This document shows positions 23,939-27,366 of a DNA stretch of 64,000 bases, one piece after another. The notes beneath the pieces are model-generated. The model did not search any database. It saw only the letters and a list, made by a program, of their open reading frames with translations, and was not told the origin of the DNA. A program made the translations under genes and the position numbers. The number at the start of each line of letters is the position of its first letter. The stretch's first letter is position 1. Source of the DNA: Planctomycetota bacterium (GTDB lineage Bacteria > Planctomycetota > GCA-002687715 > CAIWVZ01); the NCBI GenBank assembly GCA_044222185.1, contig JBGANV010000001.1, positions 1,504,001 to 1,568,000 on the forward strand, in the 5' to 3' direction.

Positions 23939-24763
23939 TCACACCGTGAACCAGGGCTTCGAGCCGCGCGTCCGGTCCATCTCGGCGAGGACCTCCAGCG
24001 CGCCCATCCCCACGGCGATCACGTGCCGCTCCGCGAGGTGCTTGGACGTTTCGTCCACGAAGGCGTTTCGGGGCCGATTCGCGTAGGCGCCGCAGACGGC
24101 GCCCGCGCGCAGGCCGCGGAGCGACGCGAGGACGAAGAGCGTGCTCGCCTCCATCTCGAAGTTCTTCACGCCGATGGAGCGCAGCCGATCGGGCAGGTCG
24201 GGGTACCGCGGCTCGATCACCTGGGGCGTTCGTCCCTGCCATCCGTAGAACCCGGCCGCGGTTGCCGTCATTCCCACGTGGAACGGAACGCCAGCACGCG
24301 CTGCCGCCGTCGTGAGTGCGAGCACCATTTCGTGCGACGCGATCGCGGGGTACGACTCCTCGACGAATCCCGCGGACGTCGATTCGAGCCGCATCGCCCC
24401 CGTGGAAATCACCACGTCCCCCAGCTCGATTTCCGGTTGGAGCGCGCCGCAGGATCCCACGCGCACGAAGTCCGGCCGATCGACGATCGCCAGGAGCTCC
24501 ATCACGGCGATCTCGGTGTTGTCGCACCCCATGCCCGTCGCCATCACCGTGACGTCCAGGGATTTCCAGCGACCGGTGTAGGTGATGTATTCCCGTGACC
24601 GCTTGGGGAATCCCGCGTTGATCGAGTCGAAACGGCCAGCGATGACCTCCGCACGCGCCAGGTCCCCGCACAGGATGATGGAACGAGCCACATCCCCACG
24701 CGCCAGACCGATGTGGTACTGGCGCCCCAACGAATCCTCGGGGCGATTGGCAGCTCGTGTCAC
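23939..24763 (-). CDS. udp: Uridine/nucleoside phosphorylase (hexameric family)
   Basis: QYHIGL, CGDLAR, REYITYTG, TGMG, RVGSCGALQ, FYGWQGR, NFEMEAS. Confidence 0.88.
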   Translation of the reverse strand: MTRAANRPEDSLGRQYHIGLARGDVARSIILCGDLARAEVIAGRFDSINAGFPKRSREYITYTGRWKSLDVTVMATGMGCDNTEIAVMELLAIVDRPDFVRVGSCGALQPEIELGDVVISTGAMRLESTSAGFVEESYPAIASHEMVLALTTAAARAGVPFHVGMTATAAGFYGWQGRTPQVIEPRYPDLPDRLRSIGVKNFEMEASTLFVLASLRGLRAGAVCGAYANRPRNAFVDETSKHLAERHVIAVGMGALEVLAEMDRTRGSKPWFTV

Positions 24764-24767
24764 GAGG

Positions 24768-25628
24768 TCACCCTCCGCGAACGATCTTCACTCCCGCGCT
24801 CGCGCCGATGCGCGTGGCGCCGGCAGCGACCATCTTGTCGAGCGTGGCTCGATCCTTGACCCCGCCCGACGCCTTCACGCCGACCGAAGGCCCGACCTCG
24901 GCGCGCATGAGGGCCACGTCGCCGACGGTGGCGCCGCCCGTCGAGAACCCGGTGGAGGTCTTCACGTAGTGCGCGCCGGCCCGCACCGCGAGGCGACATG
25001 CAACCCGCTTCTCGTCGTCCGTGAGCAGGCAGGTCTCCAGGATCACTTTGCAGACGACGCCGGGGTTCAACGCGCCGACGACCGCCGCGATGTCCTTCTC
25101 GACGTCGTCGTGACGCCCCGACTTCAGGAGGCCGACGGAGATCACCATGTCGATCTCCTCCGCGCCCAGGTCCTGAGCGATGCGTGTCTCGGCGCGCTTG
25201 ACCTCCGAGAGCGTTGCGCCGAGCGGGAAACCCACGACGGTGCAGACCTTCACTCGGCTCCCCGCGAGCTGTTTCGCGCACCGCGGAACCCAGACCGGGT
25301 TGACGCACACGGACGCGAACTCGTGCTCCCGCGCTTCGGCGCAGAGCTGATCGATCTCCTTTTCCGTCGCGTCCGGCTTCAGGATCGTGTGGTCGATGAG
25401 ACCGGCGACACCTTCCGCGGTCTTTTTCGTTCCCGGAGTGGCGGAGATCCGGCAGGCTCCGGCCTCCAGGAAGTCGCCCATCTTGAACGCACAGCGCTGA
25501 GCGCAGTTCCCCGTGCAGTCGCTGCAGGCCTGATCGCGGACGTTCCGCACCGGCTTGTTCAGTCGTTCGTAGATCTCGTCGGTGATCGACTCGATGAGGC
25601 GGTCCAGCTCCTGCGGTGCGATGCTCAC
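24768..25628 (-). CDS. deoC: Deoxyribose-phosphate aldolase with N-terminal extension
   Basis: [40 protein letters not shown]; ~70-aa extra N-terminus. Confidence 0.95.
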
Positions 25629-25906
25629 GTCGCGTCCTCCGAGAGTTCCACGTTGTCGACCACTGCGATGATGACGGCCTGAACCGGCGTCTCCTCGTTG
25701 CCGTAGAGCAGGCGGGCGCCGCCGCCTTCCTTGTTGACGAGGACCAGATCGCCGATGCCGGCGTCGACGCGGTCGAGTGCGACGAGCGGCCGCCCCAGGA
25801 GCGAGCCATCGAGGCCGATGGCCTGGGTCAGGAGGAGGCGCTCGCCCTCGAGGGGCGCATCCTTCACGGTCGCGTGTATCGAACCGATGACGCGGGAGAG
25901 GATCAT
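25625..25906 (-). CDS. BMC vertex (pentamer) protein, EutN/CcmL family
   Basis: [16 protein letters not shown]...[15 protein letters not shown]...IIAVVD. Confidence 0.92.
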
Positions 25907-26196
25907 CGGCCGTTCCCTGCCGCGTCGATCCGATCGACGATTCCCACGATCGCGGCGTCCAGCCCGGCCATGACCATGCCTGAATGGCGTCGCTTCCAGG
26001 GAATCACCGCCTCGTACGCGGTCGTGTAGAACACGATCTCGCCCTCGCCCGCGCCGACGGTGTCGACGGCCGACAGCGGCATGCCCACGGCATTTCGCGC
26101 CGCGTCGATGGGCTGAACGAGGAGCATGCGGCCGCCGTCGAGGTTCGGGTCCTTCCGCGTGGCCCAGATCGTGCCGATGACGCGGCCAAGCTCCAT
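25903..26196 (-). CDS. BMC vertex (pentamer) protein, EutN/CcmL family
   Basis: [16 protein letters not shown]...[13 protein letters not shown]...[12 protein letters not shown] overlaps rpiB stop. Confidence 0.92.
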
Positions 26197-27047
26197 CACG
26201 TCACCTCGATCTTCTGAACGCGACGGAGGTGGCGCCCTCCGCCGAATGCGGTGCCGAGGAAGACCCGCACGATCGCGCGCGCCGCATCCTCGCCCAGGTG
26301 TCGACCGCCGAGGCAGAGAACGTTGGCGTCGTTGTGCTCGCGAGTCGAGACCGCCTCGAGGATCGTCGAACAGGGGGCCGCGCGAACGCCGGCGTGGCGG
26401 TTCGCCGCCATGGCCGAGCCCAGACCGGCTGCGTCGACGATCACGGCACGGTCGACTTCGCCGCGCTCGATCATGCCTGCGGCGCGATGGGCGAAATCCG
26501 GGTAGTCCACCGCCTCCGTCGAGTTGGTTCCCAGATCGACGACGGAGTAGCCCAGCTCGCTCTGAAGCCACTTCTGCAGGGATTGCTTCAAGGGGAAGCC
26601 CCCGTGATCCGACGCGATCGCGAGGCGCAGCGGCTGCGAAACGCCCTGGGGCGCAGCGACCCGAGCCGCCGCGGGACTCGCCGGAGATTTCACCGACGGC
26701 GCCGGAGAGGCCCCGGGCCCCGCGGTCGTCGCAGGAGCCGGCGGACGCGTCGGTGTCGGCGCTTCTGCCGTCACCTCGACTCCGAAGCGCTGACACGCCT
26801 CCCGCGCGAGCGGCGTCATGATGGCGCCCGGTGGAACGACGAGCGGCCTGGCAGCGGCACGCGCGCGAAGGACGTCGTCTTCCGAGATCAGCGCGCGATT
26901 GCGGTAGTCGACTGCATCGTCGAACCGCTTCCAGGCTGGTGTCGCGACCGCCGGAACGGGGGCCTTCTCCGAGGGAACCGAAGCGCCCAGCGCCAGGCGC
27001 TTCAGGAGGACCTCCCTCACGTGGCTGCGGATCGCGTCACGTTCCAT
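26196..27047 (-). CDS. rpiB: RpiB/LacAB-family sugar-phosphate isomerase with N-terminal extension
   Basis: [43 protein letters not shown]; ~140-aa N-terminal addition. Confidence 0.88.
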
Positions 27048-27366
27048 GGCGTGACACGACGTCCGAGACCGTCATGGCATCGAACGACTCCCAGTCGCGC
27101 TTGACCGCCTCCAGGTCGTCGACGATGGCGACGATGACGGCGTCCACGGGCTTGTTCGCCGTGAGCTCGGTCTGACGCGCGCTGCTGCCCTGCGTCACGA
27201 GCACCATCTCGCCGACACCGGCGCCCACCGCATCGACGGCGACGACGATCGCATCGGCAGGCGTCCGATCGAGTTTGATCGACCGGACGACGAGCCACTT
27301 CATGCCCGTGACCTTCGGGTCCTTGCGTGTCGCCCACACCGTGCCAACCACACGTCCGAGAAGCAT
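27037..27366 (-). CDS. BMC vertex (pentamer) protein, EutN/CcmL family
   Basis: [16 protein letters not shown]...[23 protein letters not shown]...[11 protein letters not shown]. Confidence 0.94.

Follow-up and report, generated by a model that had tools for sequence, protein, structure and literature searches.

Three BMC pentamer genes, rpiB, deoC and a udp-like gene form an operon that most likely is one piece of a fragmented SPU-like microcompartment

Pentamer-only satellite loci carrying the enzymes of SPU microcompartments have been catalogued as the fragmented types FRAG5 and FRAG8 (PMC8217296, Sutter et al. 2021), fragmented types being those in which shell genes and the aldehyde dehydrogenase (AldDH) are scattered over up to six sites and whose function was called enigmatic. 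According to Supplementary Data 2 of that catalogue, FRAG5 is made up entirely of Planctomycetes and combines pfam01791/pfam02502 and a BMC-P triplet with scattered BMC-H, BMC-T and AldDH genes, and FRAG8 resembles FRAG5 and includes one planctomycete. The AldDH of these types bears a C-terminal encapsulation peptide (EP). In this FRAG8 planctomycete, CMJ90, the satellite BMC-Ps stand at locus tags 15345, 15355 and 15360 (P-x-P-P) and the BMC-Ts far off at 17160 and 17450, and in the Gemmatimonadete CME06 the satellite BMC-Ps occupy tags 08595, 08585 and 08580 and the shell genes of the main locus 16110 and 16125 (PMC8217296 Supplementary Data 1, which holds no FRAG5 labels). Loci with PF03319 alone plus BMC enzymes had already been defined as satellite-like in the available text of PMC4207490. 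BMC-P triplets are the published norm in SPU organelles, and published accounts state that their purpose is not known and suspect an additional role.

The operon analysed here lies on the minus strand of a 64-kb stretch (the window) of a 2,256,974-bp contig, and its six ORFs, all intact at 23939..27366, follow each other in the order BMC-P, rpiB, BMC-P, BMC-P, deoC and udp, with the families that the sequence-only reading had named recovered by a Pfam scan of the six products (PF03319 three times, PF02502, PF01791 and PF01048).

27037..27366, minus strand: BMC-P 1, first gene, 109 aa (PF03319, E 2e-29)
26196..27047, minus strand: RpiB-family protein, 283 aa (PF02502 at residues 143-280)
26988..27041, minus strand: RpiB residues 3-20, probable encapsulation-peptide helix (pLDDT about 89-90)
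26763..26897, minus strand: RpiB residues 51-95, compact domain of alpha/beta fold akin to the N-terminus of EutQ and of TIGR02536 BMC accessory proteins (pLDDT 95-98)
25903..26196, minus strand: BMC-P 2, 97 aa from ATG 26196 (PF03319, E 3e-25)
25625..25906, minus strand: BMC-P 3, 93 aa (PF03319, E 1e-21)
24768..25628, minus strand: DeoC/DERA, 286 aa, with a 72-residue N-terminal extension (TIGR00126, 275 bits versus a cutoff of 117)
25557..25616, minus strand: DeoC residues 5-24, amphipathic encapsulation-peptide helix (pLDDT about 90)
25491..25526, minus strand: DeoC C35-C46, CxxCxxxCxxxC module that may bind Zn or Fe-S
23939..24763, minus strand: uridine-phosphorylase-like enzyme (Udp), 274 aa, last gene, without a long extension (PF01048)

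Four of the five junctions overlap, by 11 nt between the first pentamer gene and rpiB, by 1 nt between rpiB and the second pentamer gene (4 nt if the latter begins at an in-frame GTG) and by 4 nt at each of the next two, so that the overlapping start and stop codons proposed for the operon hold everywhere except between deoC and udp, where a 4-nt gap intervenes. The operon is bounded at both ends by opposite-strand genes (an FAD oxidoreductase whose end lies at 23918, and an ORF at 27441-28394), and a promoter and terminator scan was uninformative, with 0 promoters and one terminator-like site, compared with 1.8 by chance. The GC3 of the operon (0.81-0.88) resembles that of housekeeping genes (0.87-0.90), and recent transfer was rejected on this basis.

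Measured against the seven SPU subtypes (SPU 1-7; Dwyer et al. 2024, PMC11585597), the operon shares a DERA with an N-terminal helix and an intact catalytic triad, an N-terminally extended RPI in which Asp replaces Cys, and a BMC-P triplet of which two are adjacent; however, AldDH and BMC-H are part of the curated SPU loci, whereas the operon has neither and adds udp. The absence was examined in two ways, by a Pfam scan of all 202 window ORFs of at least 120 aa, none of which belongs to PF00936 or to the aldehyde dehydrogenase, PduL or acetate kinase families, and by six-frame tblastn with two BMC-H, three BMC-T and one AldDH queries from the complete loci L027, L043 and L053, which gave best E-values in the window of only 0.79 and 0.15. 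Since the same queries, as a positive control, recovered their counterparts in the other loci (E 3e-10 to 5e-167), the lack of BMC-H/T, aldehyde dehydrogenase and PduL genes reported earlier for these 64 kb is real. With neither AldDH nor BMC-H in the locus, the operon therefore does not count as a main locus of the canonical SPU type; as in FRAG5 and FRAG8, no full set of shell genes is gathered in one locus of the window, and a BMC-P triplet stands on a locus without BMC-H. The locus-tag spacing of CMJ90 equals that of the operon, and by analogy the gene between tags 15345 and 15355 would be rpiB. Known here from 64 kb, the operon fits both types, and its udp gene would set it apart from them, as the available text of Supplementary Data 2 mentions no phosphorylase (0 matches).

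A genome scan with DeoC yielded 56 loci, largely Bacillus housekeeping deoC, and BMC-P genes occurred in just three, all complete with BMC-H, BMC-T and AldDH; neither the gene arrangement of the window nor a BMC-linked udp was found in any of the 56. L027 (Polyangiaceae), L043 (Planctomycetota) and L053 (Anaerolineae) share the three pentamer classes with the window but, unlike it, each hold BMC-H, BMC-T and AldDH together in one complete locus, and they lack udp; L027 and L043 are SPU3-like and L053 SPU6-like as assigned from published descriptions, not BMC Caller. RpiB and DeoC are fused in L027 and L043 and separate in the window, with identities to the fusions of 56-61% for DeoC and 45-49% for RpiB. 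The SPU-type microcompartments of Hodarchaeales, as far as described in the available text of PMC12747264, also have three pentamers, DERA and a proposed 5'-nucleotidase/uridine phosphorylase/mutase route; in contrast to the window, they are complete operons with hexamers and AldDH, and their phosphorylase is genome-encoded and cytosolic and is not described there as an operon member.

Taken together, we consider the operon to be that part of a fragmented, SPU-like metabolosome of the FRAG5/FRAG8 type which encodes the vertices and the signature enzyme, in a probable planctomycete and at a probability of roughly 0.78 for the scheme as a whole; other sites of the genome would then be expected to hold the genes for BMC-H, BMC-T and an acylating aldehyde dehydrogenase. 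The sequence-only reading had offered a choice between a satellite of a main locus elsewhere and an unusual vertex-rich assembly; its satellite branch is supported and the vertex-rich one is not, and the choice passed over the likeliest case, the fragmented type, in which a full canonical SPU locus need not exist anywhere in the genome, the genes for shell proteins and AldDH being dispersed over up to six sites.

The three pentamers are indeed distinct (38-43% pairwise identity, the last two encoded by adjacent genes). Triplets of canonical SPU loci draw on the grey, the orange and a third pentamer clade. BMC-P 1 most resembles the Pa (first-class) pentamers found in such loci, at 47-52% identity to those of L027, L043 and L053, and fell into no supported clade of the pentamer tree, in which BMC-P 3 alone was placed with support, among the Pc pentamers of the three canonical loci (95/93). 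BMC-P 2 is the most divergent, on a long unplaced branch, and its position and loop residues suggest that it probably belongs to the Pb class. Such a set is most likely an ordinary BMC-P triplet at the vertices of a normal shell, and the unusual vertex-rich assembly read from three pentamers in a pentamer-only locus is not supported, triplets being the SPU norm and such satellites being catalogued.

The SPU-like chemistry proposed earlier is supported by the cargo proteins. DeoC, scoring above the TIGR00126 cutoff, has its catalytic D160, K223 and K252 invariant in 96/96 rows, its TIM barrel superposes on 8qps with an rmsd of 0.9 A, and its helix 5-24 has a hydrophobic moment of 1.94 (shuffle p 0.002), in line with an SPU encapsulation helix. 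The AlphaFold model of RpiB shows an N-terminal helix, a small EutQ-N-like domain, a Pro/Ala linker and the RpiB domain, whose D205 aligns with the catalytic Cys of solved RpiB chains and is Asp in 119/120 aligned proteins. Asp for the catalytic Cys was reported in all SPU RPIs, with the protein an inactive DERA-binding partner, in the available text of PMC11585597. RpiB as an SPU signature is thus upheld by Asp205, and because the catalytic Cys is replaced it is probably a pseudo-enzyme and DERA scaffold, with isomerase activity improbable. Among the 44 closest rows, 39-43 have a hydrophobic residue at each of positions 6, 10, 13, 14 and 18 of its helix, whose amphipathicity found no support in a Kyte-Doolittle moment test (p 0.91). 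The N-terminal helices of both proteins resemble published encapsulation peptides.

Udp matched uridine phosphorylases in 18 of 18 solved structures and is filed as Udp-like because its best NCBIfam match, TIGR01718 at 198 bits, lies below the equivalog cutoff of 280. It is probably a cytosolic supplier of (deoxy)ribose 1-phosphate. Organism names accompany 13 of its 120 matches, all 13 Planctomycetota, an indirect pointer to a planctomycete host. Of the 21 relatives nearest to DeoC, 8 match a udp-bearing contig in length (null mean 0.25, maximum 2), among them contigs of 1972 and 2173 bp, and by these matching contig sizes, as distinct from gene order, udp appears to be linked to deoC in relatives; in the SPU/FRAG literature as available we found no description of udp inside such an operon. 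A salvage operon 14-18 kb away (6034-10292), annotated as nucleotidase-NupC-PNP-Cdd, would feed the pathway by dephosphorylating, importing and deaminating nucleotides, after which Udp, probably outside the shell, may cleave pyrimidine (deoxy)nucleosides to (deoxy)ribose 1-phosphate, as its family suggests. A mutase, possibly the product of the PGM/PMM gene at 4613-5992, would produce deoxyribose 5-phosphate; encapsulated DERA, with the residues seen here and the activity of its SPU6 homologue, would split this into glyceraldehyde 3-phosphate and acetaldehyde; and a distantly encoded AldDH would trap acetaldehyde as acetyl-CoA. The Cys-to-Asp RpiB would, like its SPU6 homologue, bind DERA and aid core packaging without catalysis. 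A nucleotidase-Udp-mutase route was also proposed for archaeal SPU compartments in the available text of PMC12747264.

Two readings leave the operon without facets of its own. It is unlikely that the operon is an add-on module borrowing the shell and AldDH of a PVM or MIC3 main organelle and widening its substrates to deoxyribose phosphate: both types occur in planctomycetes, in MIC3 planctomycetes a class II aldolase and a satellite BMC-P triplet lie together away from the main locus (PMC8217296 Supplementary Data 2), HO genomes carry a distant EP-bearing DeoC, and two Myxococcota loci (L039 and L045) encode a DeoC with both EP and Cys but, in the DNA examined, no BMC-P, yet DERA is confined to SPU-type cores in the catalogue, SPU seldom co-occurs with other BMC types (PMC11585597), and FRAG5/FRAG8 already cover the DeoC/RpiB pair with their own H/T set. 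Quite improbable, too, is a relic in which facets and AldDH were lost, the pentamers are passengers and DeoC and Udp are ordinary cytosolic salvage enzymes; the facet genes missing from the 64 kb, the long branch of BMC-P 2 and an RpiB without its catalytic Cys would agree with decay, but the six ORFs are all undisrupted and coupled in translation, the helices, the Cys module and the EutQ-N-like domain are conserved over dozens of relatives, and the Cys-to-Asp change is the SPU norm.

That the three pentamers alone form a small dodecahedral cage or scaffold clustering DERA and RpiB is very improbable. The operon is closed on both sides with BMC-P as its only shell genes, and the further role suspected for triplets would leave room for such a structure; against it, those genomes of the catalogue that show the same satellite spacing encode further shell proteins at distant sites, 3/3 BMC-P loci of the genome scan had H and T, and a compartment that encloses no AldDH as an aldehyde sink would lack a justification. 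The DERA-RPI complex of the SPU6 homologue has 131 kDa, for which a 12-pentamer cage, about 13 nm across in an engineered example, would be tight. We give just as little credence to the more specific form in which the genome has no BMC-H/T and a Udp-fed pentamer cage around DERA and pseudo-RpiB is metal- or Fe-S-gated via the Cys module.

The operon is thus most likely far less unusual than first proposed, being one piece of a catalogued, genome-scattered organelle degrading DNA sugars, and current BMC models stand unless the genome proves hexamer-free. Its udp gene and the nearby nucleotidase-transporter-PNP-deaminase operon would give the FRAG type a concrete substrate, pyrimidine deoxynucleosides from scavenged DNA, and the compact, co-translated triplet is useful for asking why three pentamers are kept.

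The signature enzyme also offers a conserved four-cysteine module, with C35, C38, C42 and C46 kept in 80, 92, 84 and 89 of 96 rows and CxxCxxxCxxxC at exact spacing in 86/120 homologues, at a model confidence of just 61-72. The module may bind Zn or Fe-S, judging from the motif; that it is a real, undescribed metal site controlling cargo packing in an ordinary shell is a tentative idea which we regard as somewhat doubtful. The available text of PMC11585597 describes neither this module nor the EutQ-N-like domain for SPU, and we found no description of the former in the BMC literature, from a library short on subscription papers, or of the latter in the SPU/FRAG literature as available there. 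The 72-residue DeoC extension gave no free-standing form, as 12 of 16 matches are DeoC N-termini or broken fragments (the other four are 298-1450 aa long), and its best ESM Atlas score of 0.75, below 0.9, is a lead only. That it repeats the barrel's last helix-strand unit was rejected and is left as a resemblance: 59/96 extensions exceed the shuffled 99th percentile, with negative scores, and that of the window itself fails.

None of the 709 matching plasmid records covers 80% of RpiB. Its small domain reached 0.83 in the ESM Atlas, with PF15953 PDU_like as the nearest named cluster (0.76, 72% of members), again a lead only below 0.9. At E 0.01 the window protein itself matches neither EutQ NF012001 nor TIGR02536, which match 37/120 and 38/120 of its relatives. 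The helices, the Cys module and the EutQ-N-like domain are conserved in dozens of relatives at about 40-80% identity; the RpiB 51-95 domain occurs in 112/120 aligned rows, and its HMM matches a free-standing ORF of the BMC locus L053 (E 5e-6).

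All six genes of the operon proposed in the sequence-only reading proved real and intact, on the minus strand, and they overlap at four of five junctions, deoC and udp being separated by a 4-nt gap. Both ends are bordered by genes on the opposite strand, therefore the transcription unit holds no further genes.

Genes of the BMC operon (window coordinates; intact ORFs, Pfam)
27366-27037, minus, BMC-P1
27047-26196, minus, rpiB
26196-25903, minus, BMC-P2
25906-25625, minus, BMC-P3
25628-24768, minus, deoC
24763-23939, minus, udp

A hydrophobic 317-aa ORF (27441-28394, plus) is transcribed divergently from the operon, with 74 bp between them; it has no Pfam or NCBIfam family and no relative in the 56 scanned loci. 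The proposed lack of BMC-H/T, aldehyde dehydrogenase and PduL in the 64 kb was likewise confirmed: a Pfam scan of all 202 window ORFs of at least 120 aa gave no match to PF00936, aldehyde dehydrogenase, PduL or acetate kinase, and six-frame tblastn of the window with real BMC-H, BMC-T and AldDH queries (family identity checked for one BMC-H, one BMC-T and the AldDH) found nothing (best E 0.15), the same queries recovering their counterparts in control loci.

We consider it probable (roughly 78%) that the operon serves an SPU-like metabolosome with parts encoded elsewhere, fed by cytosolic nucleoside phosphorolysis. After import, nucleosides would undergo phosphorolysis in the cytosol, deoxyribose 5-phosphate would pass into a normal shell, DERA would yield glyceraldehyde 3-phosphate and acetaldehyde, and an AldDH encoded at a distance would form acetyl-CoA. 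Gene content, coupling, catalytic residues, a Cys-to-Asp change, helices and conservation were observed here, while DERA activity and DERA-RPI binding are carried over from a homologue.

DeoC is a complete DERA, with D160, K223 and K252 invariant in 96/96 aligned proteins and a barrel within 0.9 A of solved DERAs. Its 72-residue extension comprises an amphipathic helix (residues 5-24) followed by CxxCxxxCxxxC, a candidate metal-binding site modelled at a pLDDT of only 61-72. This motif recurs at exact spacing in 86 of 120 homologues, and 111 have at least four cysteines, shares inflated by selecting homologues on residues 1-110; certain relatives have two cysteines or none. At its end (residues 46-61; 25445-25493, minus), where G57 and R60 are invariant in 96/96 rows, the extension looks similar to the final helix-strand unit of the barrel, a likeness for which the profile test was weak. 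Two Myxococcota deoC genes (L045:1388-2317 and L039:871-1752) encode an EP-like helix and extension without a BMC-P gene in the stretches examined, matching a published remark that HO-type genomes encode DeoC at a distance (PMC8217296).

In the predicted RpiB structure, a compact domain (residues 51-95, pLDDT 95-98) lies between an N-terminal helix and a flexible linker that leads into the RpiB fold. This domain shows a relationship to the N-terminus of EutQ in 37/120 relatives, to TIGR02536 in 38/120, and to a free-standing ORF in a complete SPU-like locus of Anaerolineae (L053). Asp205 occupies the position of the catalytic Cys of solved RpiBs (Asp in 119/120 aligned rows), a substitution reported for all SPU RPIs by a study that also found isomerase activity to be negligible and DERA and RPI to form a stable complex of 131 kDa (PMC11585597).

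From about residue 10 onward Udp can be aligned to uridine phosphorylases of known structure, with the base-binding segment's Gln and Arg retained, and it is probably cytosolic because it carries no extension. The pentamers are mutually 38-43% identical; in the tree BMC-P3 joins the third pentamer class of canonical loci (support 95/93), BMC-P1 comes closest to the first class, though unsupported, and BMC-P2 is unplaced.

A second operon (6034-10292, plus), 14-18 kb away, has no gene for a pyrimidine phosphorylase; the BMC operon provides this enzyme as udp.

Nucleoside-salvage operon and divergent mutase (window coordinates; annotation)
6034-7734, plus, 5'-nucleotidase
7749-9029, plus, NupC transporter
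ending at 9850, plus, purine nucleoside phosphorylase
9882-10292, plus, cytidine deaminase
5992-4613, minus, PGM/PMM-family mutase, divergent from the operon

The mutase could be a phosphopentomutase, by analogy with a phosphohexomutase-like enzyme able to act as one (PMC11641776), and together with the salvage operon it probably feeds the BMC operon.

Co-location in relatives was scored indirectly, by coinciding source-contig sizes across the rpiB, deoC and udp match lists. Coincidences for deoC-udp numbered 8 of the best 21 (null mean 0.25, maximum 2), for rpiB-deoC 4 among the best 42 x 21 (null 0.12), and for rpiB-udp 5 of the best 42 (null 0.42, maximum 4), the same five over the full list falling within the null maximum of 7. 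Such coincidences lie far above chance, and thus the udp link is probably conserved in this clade. All 13 organism-named Udp matches, among 120, are Planctomycetota; the five named RpiB matches are Planctomycetota (two), Gemmatimonadetes, Ignavibacteriales and Bacteroidota (one each), and FRAG types are on record for these phyla (PMC8217296).

Of the earlier interpretation, the SPU-like chemistry and the satellite option were supported: the operon works like an SPU metabolosome and agrees with FRAG5/8 in the features open to testing, yet with BMC-H and AldDH lacking it does not qualify as a canonical SPU main locus. FRAG genes are scattered over up to six sites (PMC8217296); FRAG5 is exclusively planctomycetal with both SPU enzymes, and FRAG8 includes one planctomycete and pfam02502 in two loci (PMC8217296 Supplementary Data 2). 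In the FRAG8 planctomycete CMJ90 (15345/15355/15360) and the gemmatimonadete CME06 (08595/08585/08580), satellite pentamers are spaced P-x-P-P (PMC8217296 Data 1 labels) and other shell genes lie far away (PMC8217296), the arrangement predicted for the window's genome; by analogy, x would be rpiB. Against a fragmented SPU system, all three BMC-P loci among the 56 that the single genome scan yielded are complete, and none has a BMC-linked udp. An add-on to a PVM or MIC3 organelle seems unlikely, a relic more doubtful still, and a hexamer-free cage very improbable.

The supposed unusualness of three pentamers in a pentamer-only locus was not sustained: BMC-P genes occur most often singly or in triplets, with a triplet in every SPU type (PMC8217296), and pentamer-only loci were earlier named satellite-like (PMC4207490). 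A pentamer-only operon of SPU type is already catalogued. The portions of the SPU/FRAG literature consulted gave no description of udp inside a BMC operon, a four-cysteine module on DERA or a EutQ-N-like domain on RPI, points on which figures and supplements may bear; four-cysteine extensions are recorded for other BMC proteins (PMC8217296 Supplementary Data 2).

Elsewhere in the window, two large, apparently secreted proteins (18790-20562, plus; 20593-22062, minus) have no Pfam family at E 0.001, the latter reading by eye like a trypsin-type serine protease. Two Ser/Thr kinase-FGE-sulfatase fusions (12982-16163, minus; 16248-18776, plus; Pfam) flank an ECF sigma factor, an arrangement typical of planctomycetes, and a type II secretion cluster (37529-48520, plus; Pfam) comprises two tandem secretin genes, GspE, GspF and several pseudopilins.
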